From a virus (Duplodnaviria > Heunggongvirae > Uroviricota > Caudoviricetes), in IMG/VR virus record IMGVR_UViG_3300045591_000029, positions 1 through 64,000 of that record: 64,000 bases of DNA. One strand, written 5' to 3'. Under the pieces are notes generated by a model. The model saw nothing but the letters and a program-made list of their open reading frames with translations. It did not search any database and was not told where the DNA came from. This document shows, in pieces, positions 2,114 through 53,760 of this stretch. Positions within the stretch are counted from its first letter, which is position 1. Each line of letters begins with the position of its first letter. Position numbers and translations under genes: made by a program.

Positions 2114-2961
2114 ATACCCAACTCCAACTTTAACTGCGGCTTCATGGGAGAGTAATTCTCTATCGTAAAATCATCAATGGTCATGTCATAGAAATTAGTT
2201 TTCTCAGGATTTAGATGCAATACAGGATTCTTGCAAGCATCATCGCCAAAGAACATACTATTGAAAAATCTTGAAATCATTTCATGTGCAGCATCCATAT
2301 GACGGTCATAAATCTGTTCATTAGCCACTACATGACTAAATACTCCAGGTTTATAACCAGTATGACGAGCAATCATCATCAAGAGCGCTGCATACTGAAT
2401 TTCATTGATACCACCGGGACCAGAAGCGGTAAGCATATCGCCGCTACGTTGAACCAGCATCATATCAAGATATTCTCCACGAACATTCCAGATGGTTAGA
2501 AACGCACAAGGTGCCAATCCCGCGGTTTCATGGAGATCAGCCTCCTGCCATAAAGAAACTACCTTGCGGCGACCATATGGATCATTTTCAATATCCTTAA
2601 TCAAATTATTGATTAAATCATATCGACTTACTGTTGCTCCATAGCGCTGACCGATCGTACCATCACCAATATCCCAGTCACCCCACCAATTAACACCCAT
2701 TTCCTCCATCTTAGCGATTTCATTCGTGGGCTTTTGATAGATAGTGAAGATTTCCTTGATACCAGTCTTCCAAGCCATCGGCCGCAGGGTACAAATAGGA
2801 AATTCTCCTTTGGATAAATCATAAGTGCGGAAATTATGATTTACAGAGAGAGTATGCGCGGGAGTGCCATCTGCATAATGCGGTCTTGGGTTAATATCCT
2901 TATATCCATTATCAAGAATAAGATTGATTGTCTCAACCATATAATTATCTGCTTTATTCAT
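2110..2961 (-). CDS. thymidylate synthase family enzyme (ThyA-like; active-site PCA instead of PCH, so a dNMP hydroxymethylase cannot be excluded)
   Basis: LAPCAFLTIW...QRSGDM...NEQIYDRHM aligns with ThyA PCHAF...QRS.D...HLY.NH. Confidence 0.7.
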   Translation of the reverse strand: MNKADNYMVETINLILDNGYKDINPRPHYADGTPAHTLSVNHNFRTYDLSKGEFPICTLRPMAWKTGIKEIFTIYQKPTNEIAKMEEMGVNWWGDWDIGDGTIGQRYGATVSRYDLINNLIKDIENDPYGRRKVVSLWQEADLHETAGLAPCAFLTIWNVRGEYLDMMLVQRSGDMLTASGPGGINEIQYAALLMMIARHTGYKPGVFSHVVANEQIYDRHMDAAHEMISRFFNSMFFGDDACKNPVLHLNPEKTNFYDMTIDDFTIENYSPMKPQLKLELGI

Positions 2962-3273
2962 TCAGTTATCGTCTCCCACAGTATTTGTGTATCCTACGAT
3001 GTTGAATTGATTGAGCCAAGAATCTAGCTCATCAATAACAGCAATATATTTCATACCTCTAGCTTTTGTTAGAAAATATCCATAGCTGATAAATCCTAAA
3101 TTTTGAGGTAGATTACGCTCTTTTGTTAACTCTAAGAACTTTTTAACCATCAGCTGAGGGTGTTGAGTAACAAAGAGTACCATCTTATCAGGATACTTAT
3201 GCGCTAAATCATTTGCGTAGTGCATTAAGCTAGTTGTCTTACCTGTACCACGACTTGCAATTACCTTAAACAT
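2962..3273 (-). CDS. small P-loop NTPase-like protein
   Basis: Walker A SRGTGKTT near N-terminus; 103 aa. Confidence 0.45.
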   Translation of the reverse strand: MFKVIASRGTGKTTSLMHYANDLAHKYPDKMVLFVTQHPQLMVKKFLELTKERNLPQNLGFISYGYFLTKARGMKYIAVIDELDSWLNQFNIVGYTNTVGDDN

Positions 3274-4187
3274 TATGAACCTCCACGAGTTCCATTCATA
3301 CCTAGCTCTTTAGTCTTATAGAACTCAATCCAATAAGTCTCTCGTTCATTTAACTAATCTCTAGGCACTTCTTCCAAAACCTCAAATATAAAATTATATT
3401 GACCAGATTTTTGCATCGCCTAATATAACTTATTAGTCGCAGGTCCGTATGCTAAAGAGGTTTTAATGTGCTGTCTAAAACGCTCTTTAATATCAACAGA
3501 CTAACCAATATAAGCCTAACCAGTTGTTAAATCGGTAATCTTATAGATGCCGCAGACCTTCGCTGCTTTAGAGAATAATCTTGCCATAAGCGTATCATAT
3601 GAAGGTTTATAATAAGTTTCCCAAATTAGCTTATCTATTGCTTCTTTCTTAAAGAAACGCTTCTATAATTCACGGAGCAATTCAATATCACTAATATCTA
3701 TTTCATCAATAGCAAGACGATAATAGTCCTAATCTGCGGCAATCGCTTCTTGGCGTTGCTAAGCCTAGATATAAGACAACTATTTAGCTTCTAATTCGTG
3801 GAGTTTGTCTTGCTGATAAGAGATTTGATTAGTTATCTATTGAAGTTCTGCTAAATGATACTTTTCTTTGGCTTGATATGTTTCATCCAGCTCTTTAGTT
3901 TTCTTTTCAAATTGAGCTCTAGCGCTCTCTTCTGCTCGCTACTCAGCGCTTTCCCGCAACTTATTCGCAGTATCGTTCAAAGAATTGACAATTTCATTAT
4001 GTGATGCAATATCTTCTTTTACTTTTGCTAATTCTCTCTATTTCAATGCAATATCTTGTTCAATGCGTTTATTCTCTTCTTGTCTTTCTTTATTTATCAA
4101 TACTACCTAAAGCCGATTATTGCGAAGATATAAAACATATCCGATTAGCGCAAGAATAACCAGGCCTGATAATATGTAATAAATCAT
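3274..4187 (-). CDS. TAG-recoded gene: N-terminal TM helix plus coiled coil, C-terminal GIY-YIG nuclease domain (13 in-frame TAG)
   Basis: hand translation on minus strand: MIYYILSGLVILALIGYVLYLRNNRL*... GIYKITDLTTG*AYIG*SVDIKERFRQH...ETYWIEFYKTKELGMNGTRGGS; only TAG interrupts, ends with TAA; invisible in standard-code ORF track. Confidence 0.55.
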
Positions 4188-4198
4188 AAGTAAAAGAA

Positions 4199-11342: not shown

Positions 11343-12749
11343 TTATTGACCACTCTTTTCAGCATAACGTTTTAGAACGGCTGCAAATTCACCACGAGTC
11401 ATAAAGCGTTTTGGCATCAACTGACCTTTTTCATTGCCATTGATTAAGCCATTAGCTTGTGCCCAAGTCATTGCGTCTTGCTCCCAGGTGACTGGTTGCG
11501 CAGCGAGCTGACTAAGATATACATTCATCATTTCATTGAATTTTTCTTGAGTCATGTCTTCATCATCCTCCTCGATACCTTTAGACTGCATTAAAGCAGC
11601 AACATCTTTGCGGACGGTTGTCATATCTTTGCCATATTTCTTGAACCAATGGTATACATCAGCATGGTTGCTACCGAGACCTAGTTGATAGCTATCTTGA
11701 TGGCAGAGAATAGTTGGAACCGTTACACCATTTACATTTACAGAACCATTTGGATTGATATTATATGTCTTGCATAAGTAAGCTGTCAATTCGCAAGCTT
11801 CTTTGTAGACTTTAGCGAAGTAATCGGGGTCACTTAGATTGTCTTCGCAGATTTCAAACTGAATCCATCCAGTATTACAGCTACCTTTAGATCCTGAACC
11901 GCAACCCCAAGGTCTATAATTCCAAGGTAGTGTTTGTACTGCGGCTACGCTTCCGTCAGCAAGAGCACCAATCCAAGCGTTTACACCAGCCTGCTATGAA
12001 CTATGATTCCAATCGGTTCTACTGGTATTTTTACCAATTTTAGTAATCAGAGATTGATAGTTCTTGTCGTTCTCAGACGGTTGAACATAACGCTTAATGG
12101 TCTTATTATTAGCGCCTGTACTGTGCCAGAGGACGCCTTTAATATCCATCTTGCGGGTTTGCTTATAACAAGTGCTATTAGTCATCATACAAACCAATGG
12201 TTGATTAGCGTTTGAATATTTCATCTTAGCTACTTCCTCCTTTTGCGTTGAATAAGTATTGAAGTAACGTTGGCCATATAACGCACGCTATTTTAGTGTG
12301 CTAGAGCTCTGATCTGCCGGTCTTTCGAACTGAGTGACCACCAAATTAGATGCTTCTTCAACAGATGAGGTAGTCTTCAAGATTTTTAATAGCTGGGAGT
12401 AACTTGTAGTTAGTTCCTGATATAAAAAATCTAGTTGGGTGTTTAAGTCACCAATAGACTTTCCTCGACTTTTACACAGCTAAAATAGACCTTGCTTGCG
12501 GCTCCAATATGTCCATTGAGCTAAACCATATCCCGCAGAATCATGCGTGAAATTGGTATAGGAGCCGTTATCAACAGCCGCAGTATACGAGGCATCATTC
12601 ATTCCTAACTCACTCTCATATGAGTTCTATAAGTTAGTTGGAATAAGTCCGCTTTCCGCGAATAGATTCCCCATTAGACCTGCGGCGCCGCAGTTACTTA
12701 ATCCTTTTGATTTGAGATAATCCCAAATAACTTGAGCATTATCCGCCAA
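11343..12749 (-). CDS. multidomain endolysin (cell-wall hydrolase) with C-terminal SLH domain; 4 in-frame TAG, TTG start
   Basis: continuous frame through TAGs: ...CGAAGLMGNLFAESGL... MKYSNANQPLVCMM...GVLWHSTGANNKT... ...TWEQDAMTWAQANGLINGNEKGQLMPKRFMTRGEFAAVLKRY (SLH-type motif). Confidence 0.6.
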
Positions 12750-12811
12750 TGACCTCACCTCCAATTAGGGTATAAAAATAGGTCGAGGGAAAAATTCCCT
12801 CGACCTCGTTA

Positions 12812-14337: not shown

Positions 14338-14802
14338 TTAATTATTATCGGCCTTCTGTCTAAAGCGTTTGACAGATTCAATAGCTTTATCTTGACCAAG
14401 AATATATTTATGTAACATATTTTTCTCTTTATCAAGAGCCTCTTTAAGTGCGTCGGCTCTATATTTGCAGCGCATCATATTTCGATTAAAAGCGCCTAAT
14501 GGGTCCACTTCCGCAGGAGTTTTAACGCCAAGACCTAATACCTCTTGATAAAACTGATTGCGGACATTAAACTTATCTCTCTCTTGCTTATAAAAATATT
14601 CAAGGGCTTCAATTCTTGCTTTTGATAGAGCAATATTATATCCAACTTTTTTAGAGTAGAAACCTTCATCACCCTTACTTAGTACAGCAGCGCCATGAAA
14701 AGTATGCCCTTGATAGCAAATCTTTACATTGGTGATACCTTCTTCTTCCTAATAATCTTTCATAATCACAGGAGCTTTATATATAGCTTTAACCAAATTC
14801 AT
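14338..14802 (-). CDS. hypothetical protein with one in-frame TAG
   Basis: hand translation MNLVKAIYKAPVIMKDY*EEEGITNVKICYQGHTFHG...FRQKADNN; no ORF on track because of TAG. Confidence 0.45.
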
Positions 14803-14981
14803 ATAGTTTTGTTCTCCTTATTTAATTCTTTATCTATATGATAGCAAAATTTTATAGATAAATCAAATTTGCCCTATTTCTCCGAAAAATTTGCTGGGCC
14901 TATGTGCGCGGAAACTCGGAGATCGACGATGCTAGCGACAAAAAAAAAGAGCCGCGCTCTTACGAACGCGGTTCTTCAAAA

Positions 14982-16536: not shown

Positions 16537-17223
16537 TTATCCGTAGTAACCTCCATCGGGAGGATCTCGTTTATAAGAGGTGCAAAGTTCAGGGATACAG
16601 CCACAATTAGGATAGGTATACACGCACTTATCGCATCTAATCACAGGCTTTGGTTTTTCAACCTACAGCTGAGCCTTGCACTCTTCTACCTTCTCGTTCA
16701 TTTCTTTGATAACATCATCAAGGAGAACGGGATAGCACTCGTGGGAATCGACTCCCACATGATACATGAAAGGAATTTCATTGTAGAAATTACTTGTTTG
16801 ATGGGTATGACCAAAGAGATTGCAAGTCACCTGCTTAAGTGACTCTTTCTCAAGATTGCCTGTTAAAGTAGGATAATGAGAAGCATAGAAATGATACTTG
16901 CGATAAGTGAAAGCATAAGCGTCAAACACGGGAATACCAGCTCTAAGATAGGCTTCTCTGCGGTTAGCAGTATCATGGTTACCACCAACCACGAGTTTAC
17001 GACCATTCATGCGATTGAGCAAAGCAATCCCTTCCTCAAGCTTATCAGCTCCGCCGAGCATGAGGTCGCCGCAGATAATAAGAGTGTCTTCAGGGGCCAC
17101 GCACTCATTATTCTTCTTTACGATAGTCTCATTCATCTCTTCAACACTCTCAAAACCACGAGCTTTCCAGATAAATTCCTTATCGTGATTATAATGGTAA
17201 TCTGATGATAGCCAAATTTTCAA
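16537..17223 (-). CDS. calcineurin-like metallophosphoesterase with TAG read-through C-terminal Cys-rich extension
   Basis: GDLMLGG...GNHD motifs; ORF ends at TAG 16663-16665, same frame continues VEKPKPVIRCDKCVYTYPNCGCIPELCTSYKRDPPDGGYYG to TAA. Confidence 0.55.
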
Positions 17224-17229
17224 TATAAG

Positions 17230-17934
17230 TCACTTCCTTTTGGGTGTTGTAATGGCTTCAATTCTCGACATTCCATTTTTCATACGCTTGTATACCGAAT
17301 TTTTTGAAATATTATAAATGGAACACCAATCTTTGAAATTGTGAAATTCTCCATTGATTTCAATTAACTTGCTGGCTTCTTCTATGGGGATGTTATTTGG
17401 AATGATTTCCAGTGTTTCTGGATTATATTCCCTAAATATAAATCCCTTTACTGTTTTATATCTGTTACTACCGGATGCGCATTTTCTAATACTAGCTCTA
17501 TCAGTTCCTAACTCATGAGCTGCGGCAGTTATTGTAGGAAAAAATTTCTTTTCTCCACTTGTTTCTGAAATGGCACAAATGGGTGTTGCCAATTTAGCTC
17601 GTACTTCTGGATCATCAAATGGATATTCTGTGTTTAGAGTTTGATTATATCCATGCTAAGAGGTTAAGCTATTATATTCAATGATTGCATCATGCTCTAA
17701 TTTATATCTTTCTTCTGGAGTTTGAATATCTTTTATTAAGATTTGAAAATCAAAATTCTCTATACCATATTTTCTTATGGCTCGATATAATGGATATTCA
17801 TATCCTGCGCGAGATTCGAGACGAGCATTTTGCTAATGTTCATACCACCTTGTTGTAAATCCTCGTGACTAGTCACTGGAACCAATATAGGTTTTATGGT
17901 TAATCAGATTTTCGATTTTATAAATGAAATACAT
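17230..17934 (-). CDS. GIY-YIG homing endonuclease with C-terminal HTH (3 in-frame TAG)
   Basis: MYFIYKIENLINHKTYIGSSD*SRGFTTRWYEH*QNARL...; C-terminal part equals track ORF 17230..17592. Confidence 0.6.
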
Positions 17935-18023
17935 TTTATCACCTTCCATTTATAAATGGAAATTCTTACAGACTCTTTTATTACTTCTGACCTCATCTTT
18001 GATAGTCATTGAAAAACTTATTC

Positions 18024-18557
18024 TTAATGGTGCACACGCACCTCGATATTAGAAAATCCCCAATTGGTCTTAGGAAACTCTTTTTCAGTAGGAATAGAAA
18101 ATCCCTTCTTCATCTTCTTAATTGCGGAATCGGGGATTCTGGCAACGCCAGTCCGCTGAGCATTACGCTCAAGAGCGGTTTCGACAGGAACATCAATGAC
18201 TTCAAAGGTCAATTTGGTATGCGGATCTGCGATCAACCGACCAAGGAGCTTTGCACGAGAAGCGGGGCTAATATGAGTCGCATCCGCAAACACAACATCA
18301 ATATCAAGTTCCATAGCTTCATTAATCTGTCGGACAAATTCGTCGAATACTTCAACTTCTTTGTCAAAGTAGCTATCACGATCGGTCAAGATGGACTGCC
18401 GCACGAAATCTCTGGAAACTACACAAGTGGTGCGATGCTCTTCTTCAATTCGGGCTACCTCTTGCTTCACCCAAGTAGATTTTCCGCTACCGGGTACCCC
18501 AACCATGACTTTCAGTTCAGTTGTCATTCTTTTCGCCTCCATCCATTTTTGCCCCAC
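18024..18557 (-). CDS. P-loop polynucleotide kinase (Pnk-like kinase domain)
   Basis: VMVGVPGSGKSTW Walker A, AAA_33-like kinase layout; 177 aa. Confidence 0.55.
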   Translation of the reverse strand: MGQKWMEAKRMTTELKVMVGVPGSGKSTWVKQEVARIEEEHRTTCVVSRDFVRQSILTDRDSYFDKEVEVFDEFVRQINEAMELDIDVVFADATHISPASRAKLLGRLIADPHTKLTFEVIDVPVETALERNAQRTGVARIPDSAIKKMKKGFSIPTEKEFPKTNWGFSNIEVRVHH

Positions 18558-19305: not shown

Positions 19306-19803
19306 TTAATTAGTTTGATCAGTAAAATAGACTTGTGAAAGTTCACCAATGTCATCAATCTCACAATCGTTTATTTCAAATGGCCAATCTACCCATAAAT
19401 CAATATGATTTTCTAAAAAATTTAATGGATCTTTCTTAAAAGTTTTATAATCTTCCTCAGATAGCTCAAGTTCTCCATGGTAATATCCGCCTCGTAGATA
19501 ACCAGTAACCCAATCTACTTCTGCATCTATATTAACTTTATGAGTTACCTCAGTTGGATTGTCAAGAGAGATATAATATTTTTTGCCATTGATTTTTTTC
19601 CAGAATGAATAACTACTTTTTGGATAGCCAACTTTTTTTTCTAGAATATCTTCCTTGGTATTAGATTGCAACACAATAACTGGGTTTTTACGCGGATCTT
19701 GACCAATTGGGTGAAAATCTACTCCATCGGCGCCGGTAATTTCAAACCATTCTTTCCATCCTGTTCCTTTTTGCCATTCAGCCATTATTATTCCTCCTGA
19801 CAT
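19306..19803 (-). CDS. hypothetical protein
   Basis: 165 aa intact ORF. Confidence 0.45.
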   Translation of the reverse strand: MSGGIIMAEWQKGTGWKEWFEITGADGVDFHPIGQDPRKNPVIVLQSNTKEDILEKKVGYPKSSYSFWKKINGKKYYISLDNPTEVTHKVNIDAEVDWVTGYLRGGYYHGELELSEEDYKTFKKDPLNFLENHIDLWVDWPFEINDCEIDDIGELSQVYFTDQTN

Positions 19804-20612
19804 TGGATTAGAGATTCGATATACTCGCGTCCTTCTCCGACAAATAGCGGGATACTTTTATCAATTTCCCAGCTAGAGCGAGTTACACCATCGGTCTCAG
19901 TTGTAACCTTGATGCAACAAGAGCCATGCTTATACATAGGATGAAAGTTTTCCCAAGAAATCCCTTTCTCCGTGATTAGCATCTCTTTGATTTTCTCACA
20001 AGACTTACCTTGGAGTTCTTTATGAGAGAAATTAGCCTGGCCTACCATTTGAATAGAATTGCGGGTTGCATCTAGCTGACGCCAATAGACGAGGTTGGTG
20101 ACCTCTTCTTTGGGAATATTGAAGCAACGAGCATCAAACATGGCGCCCATTTGTGTTTTTACTGCATAAGTCTGGCCCAAATCATCTTGTGGGTAAGGGT
20201 TATCCATAGTCGCATGAGCGGCATAATAATCTAGATTCCTATGCCGGACTCCTTCATTAAATGCTTTATTGAAAGCCATCGTTGCCATAGAAGCAGCGAT
20301 AGAGCACATTTTCTGTACCTCGTAATCAAACCAAGCAGAGCTGTTGAGCCGCTTGTAATCAACAAGGATAAGAGTGATTTCATCACTTTGTGTATACCCT
20401 AACACGCACCCTTGAATGTTTTCACAGAGATATTTCATGGTATCCTGCATTGTGTTAATCAATACATCATCAAAAGGCTTGCTGAAACCACGGGTAAAGG
20501 TGTGGAAAGCTTTACCGTCAATGCGAATTGCAACCGGTGTACGACGCATTAGCTTAGTCTTAGGAACGCTTTCGTAATCTTTCATTCTTTTAGCCAGATC
20601 TGACGTATCCAT
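19788..20612 (-). CDS. Thg1-like protein (tRNA-His guanylyltransferase family; 3'-5' nucleotidyl transferase for tRNA 5'-end repair)
   Basis: VAIRIDGKAFHTFTRGFSKPFDDVLINTMQDTM...LGYTQSDEITLILV matches Thg1 core (RxDG..FH.F...KP.D...QSDE). Confidence 0.6.
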   Translation of the reverse strand: MDTSDLAKRMKDYESVPKTKLMRRTPVAIRIDGKAFHTFTRGFSKPFDDVLINTMQDTMKYLCENIQGCVLGYTQSDEITLILVDYKRLNSSAWFDYEVQKMCSIAASMATMAFNKAFNEGVRHRNLDYYAAHATMDNPYPQDDLGQTYAVKTQMGAMFDARCFNIPKEEVTNLVYWRQLDATRNSIQMVGQANFSHKELQGKSCEKIKEMLITEKGISWENFHPMYKHGSCCIKVTTETDGVTRSSWEIDKSIPLFVGEGREYIESLIQCQEE

Positions 20613-20613
20613 A

Positions 20614-21387
20614 TTATACCTCCTTTATAAATACACTAGTTTCTAACAATAAATCTTCTAAACAAATATCTTGTTCGTGAGTATATGGAATCCTGATAAT
20701 CTTTATTCCGTTAGTAGAACACCATTGATTTTTTATTTTGTCATGCAATACTGTTTTTTTGAATTGTTCTTTGGTATTCCATCCTCGTCCGACATAGGAA
20801 AAATGTTGTTCTCCATCAAACTCAATAATGTATTCATCGTTTACATAAAAATCAAAACGAGCTAGTTGCTTAGTATCAGGGAAAACACAATCAGGAAAGG
20901 TTTTTTCTTTTTCAAAGCTGATATTATTAGCAGTTAGTATCTTTTCTATTGTGTATGCTCCATGAGATTGCTTCATACAGCCACAGGAGAATGTTTTCCC
21001 GCTTACCAAGTTGTAACTACGGACTTCGGTCTCATTTCCGCAATCGCATAAACAATGCCATACTACCTGTCCATTCAGTCTTTTACTAGTTGGATATTGA
21101 GCTACCAATTTGCCGAATCTCTAATTAGATAAATCTTTAATTGGAGTTTTCTTGCCGGCACGCTCTTTCTACAAGCATCCACAAGACTATGTTAATCCTT
21201 TTCGCAGGTTAGAACTAAGCACATCTTTTTCATTTCCGCAGTCGCAAATACAATGCCAGATAGTCTCTCCTCGGCTATCTTTTCCAGCGATATTAAGTGC
21301 TGTTAAGCGTCCGAATTTCTGTCCAGTAATATCAATTCTTCTTCCCATAATCTCATAAAACTCCTTTATATTTATTTTTTCTACCAT
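20614..21387 (-). CDS. putative homing endonuclease of the FGRLT...WxCxCDCGN zinc-module family (three modules; 3 in-frame TAG); joins track ORFs 20614..21108 and 21187..21387
   Basis: frames identical (573 nt apart), intervening sequence ...KGLT*SCGCL*KERAGKKTPIKDLSN*RFGKLVAQYPT... has only TAG stops. Confidence 0.5.
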
Positions 21388-24438: not shown

Positions 24439-24591
24439 AATCTTTAAATTGAGAGGCAAAGTGTAAGAGTATTAAAGAGAGAGTCCCTGTCGTAAAACCG
24501 GTAAGATAGACGGCTGAAGGAGGAACTATTGTTCCTAGAATAGAACCAGCAACAATAGTAGCCAGCCACAAACCATAGAGGATAATTCTCA
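24439..24591 (-). CDS. small membrane protein (50 aa, below track threshold)
   Basis: MRIILYGLWLATIVAGSILGTIVPPSAVYLTGFTTGTLSLILLHFASQFKD with RBS. Confidence 0.3.
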
Positions 24592-25322
24592 TACCTCGTC
24601 CTGCGCCTCCTCCATATCGGGAGCAGTCTCAGTCTCTTTGATAATACCCTCTAAATAATTTATATTCAAGTTATCAAACTCCTTATAAGATATTCTAACA
24701 AGTTTTATATTGTGGGTTTTGCAATACTCGGTTTTATAAGCATCTCTTTTTTGGATAATAGCCAAAGAGTCTTTTCTGTGTTGCCATCCAACTTCATGCT
24801 GTTCTCCATCATATTCAATAAGGCATATAAGTTTATTATTATTGTCAAATATTGCATAATCAAAGCTCGCAGATTTTCCACTATCTGGAAATATACAGTC
24901 TGAAATCTTATACTGTGAGATAAAGTGAATATTCATCTAAGTCAACAGTTCGTTAATTTTTAATTCGGCCTTCGACTTCAAGCATCCACATGATTGTGTA
25001 TTACCATCCATTAAATTATCTGTTTGAACAATAACAATATTACCGCACTCACATAAACATTTCTAACTTCCTGGCGGTACTCGCTCTAAGACAGTGAGTT
25101 TTCCAAATTTTTTACCTTTTAGGTCATAGGTTTTGAAATGTATTGCTTTATCGCATCCACAAGACCCGGTATGTCCATTTCGTAGAAAATCTGTTCTTAC
25201 TTCTGTTATATTCCCACAATCACACTAACATATCCATCTAGTATATTTATCATTGCGCTTAGGAGCACGTTCGAGCGCTACTAATTTCCCGAAGCGTTGA
25301 CCAGTTAAATCCAATGCTTTCA
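24589..25322 (-). CDS. putative homing endonuclease of FGKL...CDCGN family (3 in-frame TAG); track ORF 24589..24936 is its C-terminal part
   Basis: MKALDLTGQRFGKLVALERAPKRNDKYTRWIC*CDCGN...GKKFGKLTVLERVPPGS*KCLCECGN...LT*MNIHF... paralogous to 20614 gene. Confidence 0.5.
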
Positions 25323-25404
25323 TATATAATACCTCCTTGGTTTTCTATTATATATGAAATCTCTGGAGGGTATATTATTTATTTTTGCCCTCCAGAGATA
25401 AATA

Positions 25405-26667
25405 TTACTCTTGAGCTTCCTCAATATCAGGACTGTCAGAAGTTTCCTTAATGATACCTTCAAGGACGCGGAACTCGTAAGTCTTAGACTTGAAAGCAGT
25501 GAAAGTGCGACGGTTGACGATACGAACCACAACGCCCTCTTTAACATGAGTTTTGCCGATAGGATCGGCCAAGTCCTCGAAATACTTGTTAATGCGGTCC
25601 TGCAGGTCCTCGGCAGTAGTGAACTTGAAGTTCTCAATCACCGGGACACGATTAAAGCCATGCTTCTCACACCAAGCGGTAATCTCGTCAGGAGTCCACT
25701 CACGCTGACCGTTCTCGGAAGTGATGCGATAAATCCACATATGAGACTCACCGGGCTTGCAGCCGTAGGAGAAGATAGACTTTTTACCGAACAGCTTTTG
25801 GAAAGCCTTATCTTTTAGCTTGGAGTTATCGCCGATAGGCATGATGGTATCGTTCTCAGAGGGGCCGTAGTACCCTACTACCTCGTAGAAGACCTCCATA
25901 CCGGGATCAAGATGGGGTTTCAATGCCTCATGGTGAGACATACGGAATAGATCATTGCCGTAGTAGCCCTGAGAGTTCTCAGTTACAACACACCGGCGCG
26001 TACCGAGAACATAAGCCTGCTTCAGACGCTTCTTCATATGAAATAGACGACGGAAGAAGCCATTGGGAAGCTCAGCAAAGGTGTTCATGGAACGCTGAGA
26101 AGTGCCATGCATCTTAAGAGTCATATTCAGCTCATCACCTGGACGGAACTTATCCAGATTGTATGCAAGCTGCTCAGTGTCAGTATGCATTGCAAACTCA
26201 GGATAGGTAATACCCTCTGCCTTACGACCCTTGTAGGAAGTTTTAGGAGTGGTGCTCGGAGTCTTACGCTTAGGAATATACTTACGGCAGAACTCCTTGT
26301 CATTGATAGTGTTTACCTTGTCGCCGTCCTCCCAGTGCTGATCGCCAAAAGTCTCATAGATGCGCTCAAGAGCGATGACGATGCCAGAACTCTCGTTGCC
26401 ACGAAGCTTGATAGCCCGCACGTGAGAACTATTTTCCAAGTATCCGCCCTGAGGAGTGCCATCGAGATTTTTTCGATATAAGGTGAAAGCATCACCAAAC
26501 CATCTCTCAATTTCTCCGTCGGTAGGAAGATAAAGCACTAGCTCATTTTCTTTCATGTTGGGTCCAACAATAACCCCTTCGTTAAAACAATCTGCCAACC
26601 ACAGATTATCAGAATTAGGGTCTTTATGGAGATTATTTAGTTTTGTCACTAGAGCGTAATAAGCCAT
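25405..26667 (-). CDS. RNA ligase, Rnl2-like family (nucleotidyltransferase)
   Basis: motif I LKMHGTS (KxHG as in T4 Rnl2 KIHGT); 420 aa. Confidence 0.6.
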   Translation of the reverse strand: MAYYALVTKLNNLHKDPNSDNLWLADCFNEGVIVGPNMKENELVLYLPTDGEIERWFGDAFTLYRKNLDGTPQGGYLENSSHVRAIKLRGNESSGIVIALERIYETFGDQHWEDGDKVNTINDKEFCRKYIPKRKTPSTTPKTSYKGRKAEGITYPEFAMHTDTEQLAYNLDKFRPGDELNMTLKMHGTSQRSMNTFAELPNGFFRRLFHMKKRLKQAYVLGTRRCVVTENSQGYYGNDLFRMSHHEALKPHLDPGMEVFYEVVGYYGPSENDTIMPIGDNSKLKDKAFQKLFGKKSIFSYGCKPGESHMWIYRITSENGQREWTPDEITAWCEKHGFNRVPVIENFKFTTAEDLQDRINKYFEDLADPIGKTHVKEGVVVRIVNRRTFTAFKSKTYEFRVLEGIIKETSDSPDIEEAQE

Positions 26668-27382
26668 TTAATTCCTGTTCCTCCTCTTTACTAATTCGTT
26701 TATAGATAAAACCTTTATATGTATTTCTCTATCCATTTAATACTCGATAAATTGCTTTATCGGTCTTTGCTTCTGGACAAAATTCTCGATACGCCGAAAT
26801 TGCAGTAGGAAAAATAGCTAATAATTGACCATCTTTATCATACTTCGCAATCGGCTATCTTCTTGCTTCCAGTGCCTTTTTCTTTGCATCTTCTCGATGA
26901 CCATCTTGATAGGCTTGCTTTAATTTTTCACTTCGCTCTTCTTTTAAGGAAGGATTGTCAATAAACTTCTATTTTAGAGAGTTGCTAATCTTTTCATTTC
27001 TTTCGTGACTATAAGTCCGATTTTTAGCAGCTAAAGTCATATGCTGTCGATACTCTGGATCTTCCCATAGCAACTTAACAGACTCGCCTATCTATTTTCT
27101 AATTTCTTCCGTTTGATAATTTCCACCCGGAGAGACATTGTAACCAAAATCTGTATCTAAAAGATTTAATTCTTTGATTGTATCTATCTCTTTTTGTCGA
27201 ATTAAATCTTCATTATCAGATTCTAATATTACTTCCTTAGTTACATTTTCCCAGCCATATTTTTCTATAGCGTATCCGACGCGCTACCCTTTATATCTCC
27301 CCGACGCTCGCTGTTCAATAGAATTTCTAGTAATTCCGCAGTATTTTTTCCCATTTGGGAAAGTGTATAAATAACAGATCAT
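26633..27382 (-). CDS. GIY-YIG homing endonuclease (5 in-frame TAG)
   Basis: MICYLYTFPNGKKYCGITRNSIEQRASGRYKG*RVGYAIEKYGWENV...; five TAG, terminates at TAA; no ORF on track. Confidence 0.6.
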
Positions 27383-29074: not shown

Positions 29075-29827
29075 TTATTCAATTAAATTATTAAGAGTAA
29101 TATTGCCAATTTGAGTATATGGAATACGTAATAACGGAATATTGTTTTTCTTACAATATTCATCTTTTAATTTATCTCTCTGCTAAATAGTTTCTAATGA
29201 ATCTGACTAAGACCATGTTGCATCAGGTCCTAAAAAATGCTATCTTCCATCAAATTCAATTAATTTGTAAAGTTTATCTTCTTTAAAGATAGCAAAATCG
29301 AATCTTAATAGACCATTTTTTTCTGTTCTTAAATCATTAAAGGTATATTGCTAAATAAAGTTTATATTATTTTTTCTTAATAAGTCGGCAATAACTCTTT
29401 CGCCTCTGGATTTAACGCATCCACAAGATTGAGTTCCTCCACTTTTTAGATTGTTATTACTTACTTCAATAAAATTTCCACAGTCACATTGACATAAAGC
29501 CCATCTTATCTATTTATCTCGACTGGCCTCTTTTCGATATCCCAAGTCTTTTATAAAAGTTAAATGGCCAAATTTAGTTCCGGGGTCAATAATTCCTCTA
29601 TTAAAATTTTCTTGCGATAATTGTTCATTTCTTAAACATCCGCAAGATAAAGACCGACCAGAGTATAAATCTCTATATTCCTTATATCTCTTTGTGCCAC
29701 AATCGCACTAACATAAAGCCATTTTTGGAGGTTTTTTAGCCTTACTATTAGGATTTACTGTATTAACCTATAAAATAGTCCATCTTCCGAATTTAGCCCC
29801 TACCTTAATAAGATCAGATTTTTTCAT
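29075..29827 (-). CDS. putative homing endonuclease of FGRWT...CDCGN family (about 7 in-frame TAG)
   Basis: MKKSDLIKVGAKFGRWTIL*VNT...W ALCQCDCGNFIEV...LIEFDGR*HFLGPDATWS*...; EFDGR*HF aligns with EFDGEQHF in paralog 20614. Confidence 0.5.
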
Positions 29828-29895
29828 CATAATCACTCTCCTTAAAATTGGAGAGACGGACATTAATGTCCGTCTCTCCAAAAGTATATAAAATT

Positions 29896-33807: not shown

Positions 33808-35340
33808 TTAGTGAATCTGAGCGTAACGCTCGCTGTCCAGCTTCTCAAGGACCAGATCGAGTCCGTCCTTGCCGCTGAGAATCTCCTGAATCATAACAGG
33901 GCTAAAGCCACTTACATAGCTAAAGCCGTCACCGATTGCGGGAATGTTGTTATTGCGGGCGTTCAGGTTCCAGAAGATGCAGCTAGGTATCTTGTAACCG
34001 TAGCGTGCCCACTTAGCCCTCATAGCCTCAAAGAGAGTCTGGATGGCATCGCTGTGCATACCATACCCACAGCCACCCCGATCAGTAGAGTTACTGGTAA
34101 CACACTGGTCAAACTCCATATCAGAGAAGATATAGACGCGAGTAGGCATATCCTCAGGCTTTACACTTTGCTTCATTGCGGTGCTGAGCAGCATATCGAA
34201 GACAGCTTCGATATTAGTATTCATACCCCAATCTGCACCAATGCAACGGCACAACTTATCGGTAATGTCTGCTCCCTCGAACTTCACCAGCTTAGGATGA
34301 CCAGAGAAGGTAATGAAGTGGTTGGCGAAAGGACCATGCGCCTTATCTGCGATGTACGCACCCATAGAAACCGCAGCCTCCATAGGAACACCGGTCATAG
34401 AGCCAGAAACATCGACAACAGCAATGCCATTCTCGGTATTATCACCGTAGTAGTTAGGAAGGTTCTCCCAATACTTCTGAAGCATCAGACGATCAGGATC
34501 GCCCAATCCCTTACGATTGGCTTCAAAGGCACGATGTGCAATGTCGTGAGGATAGAGAGCACTGGCATTAACCTTAGTCTCAGTATCCTTAGCGAAAGCC
34601 TCATACTTAGCCTTAATCATATCGCGGCGAGCAAACGCATTGCGATAAATTACGCCGGCACGAGAAGGAATCTTATCGAACTCAATCTCGTCCCACCGAT
34701 TCTCAGACATAAGGCGCTCAACGATGCGGATACGCTCACGCAGAGTAGAGAGAGTCTTACGGTACTGCTTGGCAGTCATGCCGAAGTGATTACGGGTAAT
34801 CACCGCCAGATGGCGAGATTCCTTAGAGCTGGTATTCTCAGACTTCAACCACTTAGCAAGCAGAGAAGGAGTCTTACAAGAAACATCCAAGGCCAGCTGA
34901 TGACGCATCAGATTGAAAGCGTCCTTCTCCAGAGGAGTGCCAACGAAGATATACAGGTCGTCCCAGCGACCGTACTCAGGCACGAACCGGAGGTTACGAC
35001 GCATAGCTTCAGTCTCATAGGAAGCCATCCAATGAGTCACAACGCGGAAGAAGCGACGCTCACCCTGTCCACCACGCACATCGCGCAGATAGAATAGGCA
35101 CTTCAGGGCATGAGCCTCATCCTCCTTAAAAGCGGCCTTAAACAGAGTGATGCAATCCTCGTCAGAGCGATTGCGGTAAGAGCCGCCGAGCGCAAACAGA
35201 TCCATAAGCCCATTGAGAGTAGACTTATGGGTGACAGCACCATTTTCAGTCAGAGTATAATTGTCGTTCTGCTTCATAGCATTGAGAAAAGTGTTCATAG
35301 TATCAGTCTCCTTTTGATTTTTAGTTTCTCCCTTGGACAA
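33808..35340 (-). CDS. rsr: Ro60/Rsr-like RNA-binding protein (TROVE domain plus C-terminal vWA with MIDAS DVSGSM)
   Basis: N-terminus ...TENGAVTHKSTLNGLMDLFALGGSYRNRSDEDCITLFKAAFKEDEAHALKCLFYLRDVRGGQGERRFFR fits TROVE consensus; C-terminus VVDVSGSMTG vWA; 510 aa. Confidence 0.6.
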   Translation of the reverse strand: MSKGETKNQKETDTMNTFLNAMKQNDNYTLTENGAVTHKSTLNGLMDLFALGGSYRNRSDEDCITLFKAAFKEDEAHALKCLFYLRDVRGGQGERRFFRVVTHWMASYETEAMRRNLRFVPEYGRWDDLYIFVGTPLEKDAFNLMRHQLALDVSCKTPSLLAKWLKSENTSSKESRHLAVITRNHFGMTAKQYRKTLSTLRERIRIVERLMSENRWDEIEFDKIPSRAGVIYRNAFARRDMIKAKYEAFAKDTETKVNASALYPHDIAHRAFEANRKGLGDPDRLMLQKYWENLPNYYGDNTENGIAVVDVSGSMTGVPMEAAVSMGAYIADKAHGPFANHFITFSGHPKLVKFEGADITDKLCRCIGADWGMNTNIEAVFDMLLSTAMKQSVKPEDMPTRVYIFSDMEFDQCVTSNSTDRGGCGYGMHSDAIQTLFEAMRAKWARYGYKIPSCIFWNLNARNNNIPAIGDGFSYVSGFSPVMIQEILSGKDGLDLVLEKLDSERYAQIH

Positions 35341-35489: not shown

Positions 35490-35558
35490 TGGAGCGAACG
35501 GTGAGATTCGAACTCACGCCCTTACGGGTCACACGGCTTTGCAGGCCGGGATCTTAAA
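35488..35558 (-). tRNA. atypical class II tRNA-like gene, anticodon loop CUGCAAA (nominal GCA) with long variable arm
   Basis: acceptor gcgaacg/cgttcgc, T arm gtgag-ttcgaat-ctcac, D arm and AC stem irregular. Confidence 0.35.
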
Positions 35559-35581
35559 CCACTTGACTACGTTCGCATAAG

Positions 35582-36288: not shown

Positions 36289-36380
36289 TGGCGGAGGGCG
36301 AGAGACTCGAACTCTCACGCCGATGTTCTCGGTTACTGGCGGTTTTCAGGACCGCTCCCTTGCCAATTAGGGTTAGCCCT
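36289..36380 (-). tRNA. tRNA-Ser(UGA), class II (anticodon loop CCUGAAA, C33 instead of U33)
   Basis: acceptor ggagggc/gccctcc, G73, long variable arm, T arm gagag-ttcgagt-ctctc. Confidence 0.65.
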
Positions 36381-36419
36381 CCAAATAGAGCAGTTTTATA
36401 TCTTACTCAGGATAGCGAC

Positions 36420-48947: not shown

Positions 48948-49023
48948 TGGTGGAACCTGCGGGACTTGAACCCGCTACCTCCTGCTTGCAAGGCAGGCGC
49001 TCTCCCAGATGAGCTAAGGCCCC
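48948..49023 (-). tRNA. tRNA-Ala(UGC)
   Basis: AC stem cctgc/gcagg loop plus ttgcaag giving UGC; acceptor pairs with two G.U. Confidence 0.8.
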
Positions 49024-49145
49024 ATAAGATATATAGAGAAAAGTGAAGAGTGGTAGTACCATCACTTATCAGTACCTCGTACATTAAACCACTAAGGTCG
49101 AGTTCTAGTTAACGACAACGCTCGAAAAATGTCAGGAGGTGTTGC

Positions 49146-49236
49146 TGGCAGCCCCGCTGGGGTTCGAACCCAGACTTACTCCTTCAGAGGGATACGGTTT
49201 TAGAGACCGCCGTGCTAACCATTACACCACGGGGCA
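49146..49236 (-). tRNA. amber suppressor tRNA, anticodon CUA (loop CUCUAAA), class II scaffold (about 20-nt variable arm), G73, unpaired U1.U72
   Basis: plus strand ...gatacggt-tttagag-accgc...: AC stem gcggt/accgt (G.U closing), rc loop CTCTAAA; acceptor tgccccg/cggggct, D arm gtgtaatggttagcac, T arm ctggg-ttcgaac-cccag, CCA encoded. Confidence 0.7.
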
Positions 49237-49254
49237 ATATTCAGCAAGACACAG

Positions 49255-49330
49255 GTTTTTGCACTGGACTCGAACCAGTTATCATTTTCGTGGCAAGAAA
49301 AGAATTATCCCATTAAAAAACTTGCTGTAC
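49255..49330 (-). tRNA. probable tRNA-Gly(GCC) with weak acceptor pairing
   Basis: T arm actgg-actcgaa-ccagt, AC stem ttttc/gaaaa loop plus gtggcaa giving GCC. Confidence 0.4.
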
Positions 49331-49335
49331 TGTGT

Positions 49336-49375
49336 CTTTCTTACTTTCTATAAATATTATATCATAATATTTATT
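49336..49375 (-). promoter_or_regulatory. same promoter-like motif upstream of tRNA-Gly/suppressor tRNA cluster
   Basis: ctttcttactttctataaatattatatcataatatttat. Confidence 0.45.
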
Positions 49376-49587
49376 ATTTTTCAAATAAAGAGAATACTAA
49401 AGTCTAGGCGGGTGGTCATATTTCAGCCACACGCTTACGCTACTCCGACTTCGCAAAATTCCACTTCCAGAATTTCAGGCGTAGGTTTTTTTACGCTAAT
49501 TCAAGGGATTTCCACCGCAACTTACCTCACTCTACCTCGCCTGCCTAGACGGCCGATAAGACCTGAACCGTTTCAATATTCTCTTAT

Positions 49588-51944: not shown

Positions 51945-52030
51945 GTTTGAAGCTGGCATCAAGGGTACGAGTCGAACGCATTACCACGAGATTTGGAGTC
52001 ACGCCTCAGTCCCTCTGAGATTAAGGTTCC
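51945..52030 (-). ncRNA. tRNA-like structured element (acceptor atcaagg/ccttgat, CCA) with irregular arms
   Basis: hand fold gives good acceptor but poor T and anticodon arms. Confidence 0.25.
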
Positions 52031-52062
52031 CTTGATATATTCTTCCCTCCATAGGTGTCAGT

Positions 52063-52499
52063 CTAAGAATGACAATTAGGGCATAAAAATCTTAAATTTT
52101 CAAGCCTATGGTCATCATTTACTCCATTGATATGGTCTAATTGCAAACTAATGGGTTTACCTAACCATGAATCAATACCACAACAAGCGCATTTATATTC
52201 TAAATATCCTTCTCTTACTAGTCTGGACTTTAGACGACTAATATTATGATAAGTAGAATGTTCTACTAAAATTTCTTCAAGTGTATATTTTGCATTTGCC
52301 GCAGTTAATTTCTTTGTCCCAAAGTGGGAAATATCGCAAGATAATTCTTGAATACGCTCTTTGAGGATATCTGTAGAAGAACCACCTTTAGTAGTTAATC
52401 CCAGCATCCTTAAACAATCTGAATAACTATTCGCCTATGAAACAATGGTACGAAATTCTTCATCAGTAACTTGATAAATTTTACTTCTTCTAGCCATAT
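52063..52499 (-). CDS. HNH homing endonuclease (1 in-frame TAG); track ORF 52063..52407 is the C-terminal part
   Basis: MARRSKIYQVTDEEFRTIVS*ANSYSDCLRMLGLTT...LQLDHINGVNDDHRLENLRFLCPNCHS. Confidence 0.6.
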
Positions 52500-52569
52500 A
52501 TAATGACCTCCTTTATTTGTTCATTATATATGAAAATTATAGAAATTACCTTTACCAAAACTGACCAAC

Positions 52570-52892: not shown

Positions 52893-53643
52893 TGAACTTA
52901 TATCTTTGACCACATTTCATCAGAATATTTTTTAATATCAGATTTACGATAAGGTAAATCGTAGGCTTTACACCATTTTTTAATGGTGTTATCAGAAACA
53001 GAAAAATTTTTTCCTATACTCACAAAAGTTTCTGCCCTAATCATATCTTTTAAGACTTCTCTACTCGGTCTTTCACACTTTTGTTGTCTAATATGGTCAC
53101 AGGCAGAACATCTAATTGCTCCCTTAGAAATTTCTTTTCCACAATCAACGCAATAATGATGCTATTTTGTTATATCTTTTACCTTGCGTAATGGATACTA
53201 TTCACCTTCAATAGTATGATAATCACCACGATTAAGATAATAAACCATGCTTAAGTCTAAACCATATTTTTCACTAATTTGTGAAAAAGATAGCTCAGAT
53301 TTTTTAATATCTTGAATAATACTATCCAAGACCTCTGGTGCATATCTCTTAAAAACTTGGTTCTATGAACTACCGCCAGATGTAATATTATATCCATTGG
53401 GAGTAATTGAGTTATACTTTTGAATATAGAATTTTTCTCTTGTATCTAAAAGATACTCTGGACATTCTTCGATAATGGAAAAAGCAAAATTATCTTTTCC
53501 TTCTCGTTGAATCGCCTACCCAATTAGCGAATTACTACGGCAATGCTCTGCAAATCGCTTTTCGATATGAAGGCTCTAACCCACATATACCTTACCATCA
53601 GTCAGATTTTCAATTTTATAAATACCAATAGACAAGTCTTTCA
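52893..53643 (-). CDS. GIY-YIG homing endonuclease, I-TevI-like with C-terminal zinc finger/HTH (5 in-frame TAG)
   Basis: MKDLSIGIYKIENLTDGKVYVG*SLHIEKRFAEHCRSNSLIG*AIQREGKDNFAFSIIEECPEYLLDTREKFYIQKYNSITPNGYNITSGGSS*... Confidence 0.6.
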
Positions 53644-53760
53644 TCTCCTCTACTATATTTACAATTTTGAACCGACTCTTTAATGAAATGTACCCAAAAT
53701 TTTTCTTAAACTAATGAAACGAAGACTGACGTGCTAGCCGCTAACACTAATCCTGCATAA

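Follow-up and report, generated by a model that had tools for sequence, protein, structure and literature searches.

A putative Gln-type amber suppressor tRNA with an extra arm in the tRNA island of a TAG-recoded phage

The suppressor tRNA gene

We analyzed a 64,000-nucleotide stretch of DNA from a Caudoviricetes virus (positions 1 to 64,000 of IMG/VR record IMGVR_UViG_3300045591_000029), hereafter called the window, with a focus on a tRNA gene at 49146-49236 on the minus strand. ARAGORN called 31 tRNAs and a transfer-messenger RNA (tmRNA) in the window, nearly all of them on the minus strand, and the gene at 49146-49236 is the sole tRNA of this 31-tRNA island with a CUA anticodon. The locus holds a real phage-encoded amber suppressor tRNA whose CUA register is fixed. 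We consider it very probable that this tRNA is a functional Gln-type suppressor belonging to a large phage (about 145 kb, judging by its relatives) that uses the TAG-recoded "genetic code 15," and that it is charged by glutaminyl-tRNA synthetase (GlnRS). The gene and the parts of it that carry the argument are as follows.

49146 to 49236, minus strand: amber suppressor tRNA(CUA) with a Gln-type body, an extra arm and an encoded CCA (ARAGORN, Rfam RF00005, cloverleaf as minimum-free-energy fold)
49199 to 49205, minus strand: anticodon loop CUCUAAA with the anticodon CUA at 49203-49201 (register of the Rfam alignment; ARAGORN)
49174 to 49193, minus strand: 20-nt variable region, tRNA positions 44-63 (16-nt insertion relative to class I members; covariation)
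49146 to 49150, minus strand: acceptor end with U72 (49150) unpaired with U1 (49236), G73 at 49149 and the encoded CCA at 49148-49146 (sequence)

The initial annotation of this DNA had proposed a 91-nt minus-strand tRNA with the anticodon stem gcggt/accgt and the loop CUCUAAA, and both programs agree with it. ARAGORN reported a 91-nt tRNA with the anticodon cta at position 34, and Rfam model RF00005, which has a gathering score of 29 bits, aligned at full length (model positions 1-71 of 71) to 49149-49236 with 54.5 bits and an E value of 5.9e-9 for the whole window. The two registers coincide, with no shift of the anticodon to UCU. Read on the minus strand, the tRNA is UGCCCCG UG GUGU AAUGGUUA GCAC G GCGGU CUCUAAA ACCGU AUCCCUCUGAAGGAGUAAGU CUGGG UUCGAAC CCCAG CGGGGCU G CCA. 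Direct reading of the sequence bore out each structural element that had been claimed: an acceptor stem (UGCCCCG/CGGGGCU) in which pairs 2 to 7 are Watson-Crick and U1.U72 is unpaired, a D stem (GUGU/GCAC) with GG in the D loop, the T arm CUGGG-UUCGAAC-CCCAG, G73, and the encoded CCA. The Rfam alignment gives the anticodon stem GCGGU/ACCGU a 7-nt loop and places the surplus nucleotides in the variable region as an insertion. The cloverleaf is the minimum-free-energy fold; its energy is not below that of shuffled sequences (z = -0.3), a comparison that is uninformative for a tRNA.

ARAGORN labeled the tRNA "Pyl," a label that reflects the anticodon alone. A tRNA-Pyl has a short D-loop, a 3-nt variable loop, and a 6-bp anticodon stem. 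We rejected this identity for the window tRNA, which has a standard D-arm, a 5-bp anticodon stem, and a 20-nt variable region, and neither pylS nor pylBCD is among the annotated open reading frames (ORFs) of the window. The suppressor gene or a close variant occupies the same array position in many viral contigs of 80-190 kb and in about 90 metagenome contigs; in a family of IMG/VR contigs of 80-165 kb, it sits between tRNA-Ala and tRNA-Asp. Because the gene recurs in the same array position across so many contigs, a suppressor tRNA at this locus is far beyond chance.

TAG as a sense codon

Many minus-strand ORFs of the window are long only if TAG is read through. Among 32 curated genes, 23 end in TAA, 9 in TGA, and none in TAG, and 44 in-frame TAGs are found in 9 of the 32: four in the endolysin gene, one in a phosphoesterase gene, and 39 in seven homing-endonuclease-type genes. 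In the endolysin, the Pfam domains Phage_lysozyme2 (residues 8-170) and Amidase_2 (residues 205-357) run across the four TAGs. CAG is nearly absent from the TAG-rich genes, as expected if TAG took over from CAG. TAG is thus a sense codon in the window phage, and the suggestion in the initial annotation that a CUA anticodon reading UAG fits the in-frame TAGs is upheld by TAGs that lie inside intact Pfam domains. Decoding of these TAGs by this particular tRNA is what its anticodon would predict. The nine genes with in-frame TAGs are listed here.

3273 to 4190, minus strand: GIY-YIG endonuclease gene with 13 in-frame TAGs (start codon uncertain), putative suppressor client
11343 to 12764, minus strand: endolysin gene (Phage_lysozyme2, Amidase_2 and SLH) with 4 in-frame TAGs, putative suppressor client (Pfam; relatives have CAA/CAG at the same columns)
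16537 to 17223, minus strand: Metallophos phosphoesterase gene with 1 in-frame TAG, putative suppressor client (Pfam)
17230 to 17949, minus strand: I-HmuI-like endonuclease gene with 3 in-frame TAGs (Pfam)
20614 to 21387, minus strand: CxC-repeat nuclease-like gene with 3 in-frame TAGs
24589 to 25323, minus strand: CxC-repeat/DUF2726 gene with 3 in-frame TAGs (Pfam)
26633 to 27382, minus strand: GIY-YIG gene with 5 in-frame TAGs (Pfam)
29075 to 29863, minus strand: CxC-repeat gene with 7 in-frame TAGs
52898 to 53644, minus strand: GIY-YIG gene with 5 in-frame TAGs (Pfam)

The 23 genes that contain no TAG include those for gyrase A and B, DNA ligase, ThyA, DHFR, RNase H, PhoH, Band_7, Thg1, RNA ligase, and UDG, and thus cover replication, nucleotide-metabolism, and tRNA-repair functions.

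Gln as the amino acid inserted at TAG

Database homologues of the endolysin all have Q at the four TAG sites. We rejected them as evidence on the grounds of circularity: translating their genes under table 11 does not give the database proteins, which shows that a recoded table was used in predicting them. Codons were instead compared at the DNA level, with the database Qs left out of the count. For the endolysin, four lineages were available: the window, L010-12 (about 96% identity), L013 (about 68%), and L014/15 (about 63%). These contained 17 columns with TAG in at least one lineage, and in 11 of the 17 the partner codon was CAA or CAG, with TAG-CAA swaps seen even between genomes that are about 96% identical. 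The partners in the other six columns were F/Y, N, E, N, V/R, and E.

The same preference held across the window. At positions where any of the fetched relatives has TAG, the window has CAG nine times and CAA eight times (17/29), and Gln codons also lead among the codons that relatives have opposite the TAGs of the window once spurious frames are removed. Codons for Ser, Leu, and Tyr each account for at most 1-3 of about 57 comparisons, and Glu codons for 3/29 and 1/28 in the two directions. Because TAG interchanges mainly with CAA and CAG at the DNA level, these comparisons support TAG = Gln independently of annotation, as the initial annotation had supposed, and this assignment agrees with the literature on gut phages.

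TGG also appeared to be a frequent partner of window TAGs. We discarded this signal since it came mostly from spurious frames over tRNA genes or inside Thg1, or from positions upstream of true starts, and a single TGG-TAG pairing inside a real gene was left. This case lies at codon 22 of the gene at 14338-14817 (minus strand), where a 98%-identical relative has TGG (Trp) in place of the in-frame TAG; it is either a tolerated Trp-to-Gln change enabled by the suppressor or a recent nonsense mutation.

A class I body with an insertion

A looser search pattern consisting of the D-arm and CUCUAAA recovered 31 viral contigs. Most of these copies belong to class I, with U1, a variable loop of 4 nt, and either U1:A72 or U1.G72 with A73, whereas the window lineage and a few others have 16 extra nucleotides in the variable region. 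MAFFT misplaced this gap by two columns when class I and long-arm members were aligned together, so structure-guided parsing and an ungapped sub-alignment were used. A scan of bacterial genomes for the D-arm found tRNA-His genes of Patescibacteria and Pelagibacter in addition to tRNA-Gln genes, and those matches that start with U1 were all Bacteroidales tRNA-Gln with U1:A72, A73, and a 4-nt variable loop. Because the class I relatives share U1 and G10 and the D-arm is identical to that of Bacteroidales tRNA-Gln, the suppressor has a Gln-type class I body, and its class II look comes from the insertion. The label "class II" used in the initial annotation is therefore apt structurally, as the variable region is large, and inapt in the Ser/Leu/Tyr sense. 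Its caution that a long variable arm is not Gln-like is resolved by the arm being a lineage-specific hairpin on a Gln-type body. We also considered an origin from tRNA-Tyr by a GUA-to-CUA change, as in supF; the anticodon arms are alike, but U1, the D-arm, and the relatives of class I argue for Gln.

The bacterial Gln identity set, as defined for E. coli GlnRS, comprises G73, U1-A72, G2-C71, G3-C70, G10, U35, G36, A37, and U38 (PMC9976931). The GlnRS-like identity proposed in the initial annotation holds for G73, a weak 1:72, G2:C71 (23/26 in the long-arm family described below), G10 (as G10:C25; G10 in 26/26), U35, and A37, and does not hold for G3:C70, G36, and U38. At the end of the stem, the suppressor keeps U1 and has U at position 72, which leaves the pair open. 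GlnRS unpairs 1:72, and the mismatch may serve this enzyme in place of U1-A72.

In one class I copy of the suppressor, at 2810-3700 (plus strand) of contig L033, the tRNA sequence is interrupted where the anticodon loop ends (CTCTAAA|), and a 274-aa ORF follows. This ORF is 45% identical to the window ORF at 52021-52512, and there is no tRNA 3' half within 2.5 kb. An insertion (of an intron or a homing endonuclease) or disruption of the gene could account for this arrangement.

A conserved extra arm on CUA tRNAs

The variable region of the suppressor consists of A44, a 3-bp stem (45-47/55-57, at 49192-49190/49182-49180), a loop at 48-54 (CUCUGAA, 49189-49183), and a 3' tail (GUAAGU, 49179-49174). 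To guard against ascertainment bias, we surveyed IMG/VR and a metagenome collection with a pattern that left a variable region of 18-22 nt free and prescribed no more than the T-loop, the anticodon loop, and the 3' strand of the anticodon stem. Among the 26 distinct long-arm tRNAs that this survey yielded, acceptor stems and arms each came in 15 versions, and the arm length was constant at 20 nt. All three stem pairs of the arm change on both sides, and 60 of 60 cells are paired. Covariation in the segment from the anticodon arm to the T arm was 0.383, compared to 0.091+-0.020 in shuffles (0/500 reach it), and slid registers of the arm helix all collapse in this test. The register favored by minimum free energy (48:58 to 51:55) was rejected, as it is only 60-93% paired rather than 100%.

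The loop is kept while the stem varies. Across the 15 arms, U51 and G52 are found in 15/15, U49 in 14/15, and C50 and A53 in 13/15 each (with U in place of C50 in two), giving the consensus U-[C/U]UG-A, and G58 of the tail is invariant. A second search, which required the arm and T-loop and allowed any anticodon, found 15 viral contigs, all with a CUA loop (14 readable), and added a lineage with yet another anticodon stem. The arm was thus found only on CUA tRNAs. A search for an analogous arm with a CCA loop on opal suppressors gave 35 matches to a narrow pattern, with no tRNA among them.

These observations indicate that the arm is a lineage-specific 16-nt hairpin insertion rather than a class II arm of the Ser, Leu, or Tyr type. 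It is probably under purifying selection and specific to CUA suppressors, and would thus be a functional module that leaves the amino acid unchanged. An alternative that we find unlikely is that the arm is a neutral passenger with no function of its own, tolerated by GlnRS and the ribosome. Class I synthetases such as GlnRS approach the tRNA from the side that faces away from the variable region, and class I members of the family evidently work without an arm. Moreover, an amber tRNA-Ser, which is of class II, becomes a Gln acceptor after two changes in acceptor pairs (PMC9976931), so a long arm is no bar to GlnRS. A passenger would not be expected to keep its loop and G58 across 15 arms on 15 acceptor stems while its stem covaries, to keep a constant length, or to occur on CUA tRNAs only, and phAss-1, a related phage discussed below, keeps class I and long-arm suppressors side by side.

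If the arm is functional, its loop offers one candidate role. Read as an anticodon loop, it is C-U-CUG-A-A, which is the loop of tRNA-Gln(CUG), and the only triplet substitutions seen give UUG, the other Gln anticodon. The arm might therefore mimic the anticodon stem-loop of a sense tRNA-Gln, including the G36 determinant that is lost in an amber anticodon. With such an arm, the tRNA would offer a "sense" Gln anticodon in addition to its own CUA. The recipient would be the machinery that charges Gln or some other factor that recognizes the anticodon loop of tRNA-Gln, be it an enzyme of tRNA modification, a phage-encoded regulator of the switch in code, or an anticodon nuclease of the host, which the arm would decoy. 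We regard both the mimicry and such a recipient as quite doubtful. The main argument against the simplest mimicry model is that the anticodon and the variable arm are probably too far apart for one GlnRS monomer to contact the two together. The arm is present in both of the acceptor-end classes described below. If mimicry were real, identity would be uncoupled from decoding, and the arm together with a selected 1:72 mismatch and G73 would amount to a natural modular route to an efficient, orthogonal-looking suppressor.

The window phage has a second class I-type tRNA with an added hairpin: an 87-nt tRNA-Cys(GCA) at 35490-35576 (minus strand; U73, CCA, 54.6 bits in Rfam) has the long extra arm UGUGACCCGUAAGGGCG, whose loop GUAA is unlike its own anticodon.

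The acceptor end and charging

In the 26 long-arm tRNAs, positions 1:72 and 73 fall into few combinations: U:A with A73 in 11, U.U with G73 in 10, A.C with G73 in three, and U.C with G73 and A:U with G73 in one each. A73 thus goes with U1:A72 in 11/11 and G73 with a mismatched 1:72 in 14/15, over 15 acceptor stems. An encoded CCA accompanies 12 of the 15 G73 genes and three of the 11 A73 genes. Because the rule of G73 with an open 1:72 holds over many independent acceptor stems, U1.U72 of the suppressor is best read as a selected state and not as decay. A mismatch with G73 would fit direct charging by an E. coli-type GlnRS, which uses G73 and 1:72. The two acceptor-end classes probably track host clades, Bacteroidota and Bacillota, and the SLH-domain endolysin together with CCA-encoding tRNA genes hints at a Bacillota host for the window phage.

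Many Bacillota have no GlnRS. In such a host, Gln would have to be attached indirectly: a nondiscriminating glutamyl-tRNA synthetase (GluRS) would make Glu-tRNA, and GatCAB would amidate it. For this route speak U1, which is present in 22/26 family members, and the perfect U1:A72 of the A73 subclass, U1-A72 being the determinant for the amidotransferase and GluRS2 (PMC9976931). Nevertheless, the 1:72 mismatch in the window tRNA and in 14/15 G73 members removes this determinant, and the modified U34 that is the main element for B. subtilis GluRS (PMC9976931) is C34 here. In addition, Glu would be inserted from any product left unamidated, and Glu codons seldom stand opposite TAG. We therefore consider the indirect route improbable for this tRNA and favor direct charging by GlnRS.

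The two sense tRNA-Gln genes that the initial annotation had placed nearby were both found by ARAGORN.

41941 to 42014, minus strand: sense tRNA-Gln(CUG), class I, with A1:U72, G73 and CCA
43171 to 43246, minus strand: sense tRNA-Gln(UUG), class I, with A1:U72, G73 and CCA

Both have A1:U72 with G73, as opposed to the U1:A72 typical of bacterial tRNA-Gln. A Lachnospiraceae tRNA-Gln(UUG) (L067) also has A1:U72, which makes this pair a possible clue to the host.

Ser, Leu, or Tyr identity and decay as alternatives

A long variable arm could instead signify a class II identity, with UAG read as Ser, Leu, or Tyr. The suppressor has several elements of the bacterial Ser set (G73, G2:C71, G30:C40, and a large variable region of 20 nt; PMC9976931), and genuine class II CUA tRNAs exist in metagenomes. 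It departs from the Ser set at C72 (U here), R4-Y69 (C4:G69), and C11-G24 (U11:A24). A73, the decisive determinant for Leu and Tyr (PMC9976931), is G73, and the G34 of Tyr is C34. Furthermore, the body is of the class I Gln type, and a 3-bp hairpin with a 6-nt 3' tail differs from the flush 5-6 bp arms and long D-loops of class II tRNAs. Together with the exchange of TAG for CAA and CAG and not for Ser, Leu, or Tyr codons, these differences make a class II identity very improbable.

Equally improbable is a decaying or nonfunctional copy, with the TAGs read by another suppressor or by host read-through, or with the TAG-containing genes as pseudogenes: U1.U72 and the odd insertion could look like decay, phAss-1 has three Sup-CTA genes and so shows redundancy in related phages, and a degenerate tRNA-like remnant adjoins the gene at 49254-49319, but identical or nearly identical sequences occur in many contigs, compensatory changes keep all helices across diverged lineages, the mismatch follows a conserved rule, the gene is the only CUA tRNA of its island, and the TAG-containing genes are conserved with intact domains.

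The class II CUA tRNAs mentioned above number six and lie in metagenome contigs L178, L183, L195 (two copies), L211, and L246. Four are Ser-like (G73 and a GGCAGAGUGGUCGAAUGC-type D-arm), and two are Leu/Tyr-like (A73). They are possible TAG-to-Ser, -Leu, or -Tyr suppressors unrelated to the window tRNA.

Expression, proposed mechanism, and points against it

The features upstream of the suppressor and the related promoter copies are listed below.

49356 to 49384, minus strand: near-consensus sigma-70-type promoter TTGAAA-17-TG-TATAAT (11/12 match to consensus; putative function)
49254 to 49319, minus strand: degenerate tRNA-like leader between promoter and suppressor (ARAGORN "Gly-gcc," 66 nt)
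53963, 51939, 49384, 43735 and 36814, minus strand: first hexamer of each copy of the promoter cassette

The promoter at 49384->49356 lies about 120 nt upstream of the suppressor and would head a transcription unit that starts with it. It is one of five near-consensus sigma-70-type promoters (11/12) in the 19.5-kb island, all on the gene strand. The five share a cassette of about 45 nt, TTGAAA-N17-(TG)TATAAT-ATTTATAGAAAGT, and their upstream flanks are unrelated; the cassette is likely a phage early or middle promoter type. The leader at 49254-49319 has an intact T-arm (ACUGG-UUCGAGU-CCAGU) and no Rfam tRNA match at E<=1. A class I Sup-CTA occupies the corresponding spot in phAss-1, and the leader may be a decayed second suppressor.

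In the model that we propose, the suppressor would be transcribed with the tRNA island, probably from the sigma-70-type promoter 120 nt upstream, and its maturation would use the CCA encoded in the genome. The TAG-free, standard-code-compatible genes would be expressed first along with the island, and the 23 TAG-free curated genes could be translated before the suppressor accumulates. The tRNA would be charged with Gln directly, most likely by host GlnRS via U35, G10, G2:C71, G73, and the unpaired 1:72. As it accumulates, its CUA anticodon would out-compete host release factor 1 (RF1) at UAG, and the TAG-containing genes (endolysin, phosphoesterase, and the seven homing-endonuclease-type genes) would then become translatable. 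We infer the charging enzyme, the timing of expression, the competition with RF1, and the role of the arm from the features described above.

Several points weigh against a functional, GlnRS-charged Gln suppressor. Expression, aminoacylation, and the inserted amino acid were judged for the window phage from sequence alone, and the promoter is a consensus match only. A host GlnRS is assumed, but some Bacillota, the phylum hinted at by the SLH domain and encoded CCA, are without this enzyme. The suppressor has C3:G70 rather than G3:C70 (C:G in 17 and G:C in nine family members) and A36 and A38 rather than G36 and U38, so that, with 3:70, three E. coli GlnRS determinants are missing in all; A36 is unavoidable in an amber suppressor. 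A minority of the TAG-aligned codons in relatives are not Gln codons (N, K, E, R, V, S, and W). Finally, 64 kb of the genome is in view. Neither an aminoacyl-tRNA synthetase nor a release factor is among the annotated ORFs of this window, and the phage could encode one beyond it.

Two other processes were considered. Editing of U1 by a Thg1-like enzyme to pair with U72 was rejected: a tRNA-His without an encoded G-1 gives Thg1 an ordinary job, and templated repair by Thg1 would yield G1:C72, an antideterminant for Gln, in the U.C and A.C lineages. An associated hepatitis delta virus (HDV)-like theta ribozyme seems unlikely: the CCA is encoded, and no HDV-like Rfam match was found 3' of the suppressor (49020-49160) at E<=10, the published RNArobo descriptor, available as a figure only, not having been run.

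Other features of the island

The tRNA-His at 46800-46877 (minus strand) has C73, and the base 5' of its G1 is T, so that G-1 is not encoded. A gene for a Thg1-like enzyme lies at 19788-20612 (minus strand; Pfam Thg1, 107.8 bits), and its product could add G-1 to tRNA-His posttranscriptionally, which would be unusual for a bacterial system. Alongside this gene is a tRNA/RNA repair-type set on the minus strand: the Metallophos phosphoesterase gene (16537-17223), an AAA_33 kinase-like gene (18024-18527), an RNA ligase gene (25405-26667), and a DUF2828/DUF7788 gene with a faint vWA match (33808-35340).

The tRNA at 40913-40986 (minus strand) has an 8-nt anticodon loop, GUUAAAAG, which ARAGORN marked "???" with the 4-base anticodon uaaa; it has G73, CCA, and an Rfam score of 36.2 bits and is conserved in relative L005 (11258-11331). 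Possible readings are a decoder of the quadruplet or frameshift type and a gene in decay. A tRNA-Asn(GUU)-like gene at 47955-48029 (minus strand) also has an 8-nt loop, CUUGUUAA, with an all-A/U acceptor stem and no CCA. As relatives L001 and L006 have a normal 74-nt Asn-GUU tRNA in its place, it is probably a 1-nt insertion variant or pseudogene. The tRNA-Ser(UGA) at 36289-36382 (minus strand) has the loop CCUGAAA, with C33 in place of the near-universal U33. The tmRNA gene lies at 45841-46181 (minus strand; 76 bits in Rfam), and the tag peptide of its relatives is DNNYFDSHMAA or DNDYFDSHMAA. This tmRNA could play a part where ribosomes stall at UAG while the suppressor is still building up.

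Significance and comparison with known systems

Stop-codon recoding by phages is known, and how suppressors keep Gln identity after losing part of the anticodon determinants is a question raised by Borges et al. The locus is a concrete, widespread, and experimentally tractable case, in which a Gln-type family has two acceptor-end solutions (U1:A72 with A73, and mismatched 1:72 with G73) and one subfamily has additionally gained a conserved, suppressor-specific hairpin. As a phenomenon, it belongs to genetic code 15, with an annotated relative in phAss-1, and what appears to be new is structural: both the extra arm and the dichotomy at 1:72/73 appear to be undescribed in the literature that we searched, and the recoded-phage papers turned up by these searches make no mention of a long variable region in suppressors. 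Should the arm or the mismatch raise the efficiency of charging or suppression, the engineering of amber suppressors could profit from it; with an arm that is no more than tolerated, the tRNA is an ordinary member of the code-15 toolkit. The family also helps annotation, as such tRNAs are now labeled "Pyl," "TERM," or "undetermined" by current tools, and also helps phage host prediction.

Reassignment of TAG to Gln and CUA suppressor tRNAs are known in crAss-like, Lak, Agate, and other gut phages (Borges et al., 10.1101/2021.08.26.457843; PMC10607447), and Gln at TAG was shown by mass spectrometry in crAss-like phages, according to the part of Peters et al. (PMC9523058) consulted. The code-15 gut phages and the window phage are alike in having a CUA tRNA, TAG = Gln, lysis and other late-type genes with in-frame TAGs, and other genes that are compatible with the standard code. 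No phage aminoacyl-tRNA synthetase was seen in either, and charging by the host is assumed. The structure of the suppressor is not described in the portions of Borges et al. and Peters et al. consulted. The window lineage is distant from deposited phage genomes, with GyrA at most 36% identical (tblastn) and no megablast match.

Amber suppressors of recoded gut Caudoviricetes have also been described in association with theta (HDV-like) ribozymes (Kienbeck et al., PMC10879173). RNA ligase is enriched in phages with such tRNAs (PMC10879173), and the window has one too, at 25405-26667. The window tRNA differs in encoding its CCA, which is the case for only 4.5% of theta-associated tRNAs (PMC10879173).

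Like class II tRNAs (Ser, Leu, and bacterial Tyr), the suppressor has a large variable region that forms a hairpin between positions 44 and 48. In true class II tRNAs, G1:C72 is combined with long D-loops of the Ser/Leu type and with flush 5-6 bp arms that have almost no tail, whereas the suppressor has a class I D-arm and a hairpin with a 3-bp stem, 7-nt loop, and 6-nt 3' tail, and lacks most Ser, Leu, and Tyr determinants. The supE-type amber suppressors of E. coli and Gln-mischarged amber suppressors share with it a CUA anticodon that keeps U35, and Gln acceptance by amber suppressors hangs on a weak 1:72, G73, and pairs 2:71 and 3:70 (PMC9976931). These suppressors are laboratory or host mutants of class I tRNA-Gln; the window tRNA, in contrast, is encoded naturally by a phage, and it combines a full mismatch at 1:72 with C3:G70 and the conserved arm. 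Bacteroidales tRNA-Gln(UUG/CUG) has the identical D-arm UGGUGUAAUGGUUAGCAC, U1, G10, G2:C71, and a variable region that ends in AGU. Within the suppressor family, the class I members and those with A73 have the same U1:A72 and A73. It differs from the window tRNA in its sense anticodon and in a 4-nt variable loop with no extra arm, and the window tRNA has U72, G73, and an encoded CCA.

The closest counterpart is tRNA-Sup-CTA no. 2 of phAss-1 (OQ749652.1, 62445-62532; PMC10607447), which is 82% identical over positions 10-91; a class I Sup-CTA of 72 nt precedes it at a distance of 6 nt. The extra arm is not mentioned in the phAss-1 paper, in which the word "variable" has 0 occurrences, and tRNAscan-SE assigned the phAss-1 Sup-CTA to Gln (PMC10607447). 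This tRNA shares with the suppressor of the window the anticodon arm, T arm, arm core CCCUCUGAAGGG, G73, and encoded CCA, and is unlike it in having another acceptor stem and D-arm, with A1:U72 paired in place of U1.U72.

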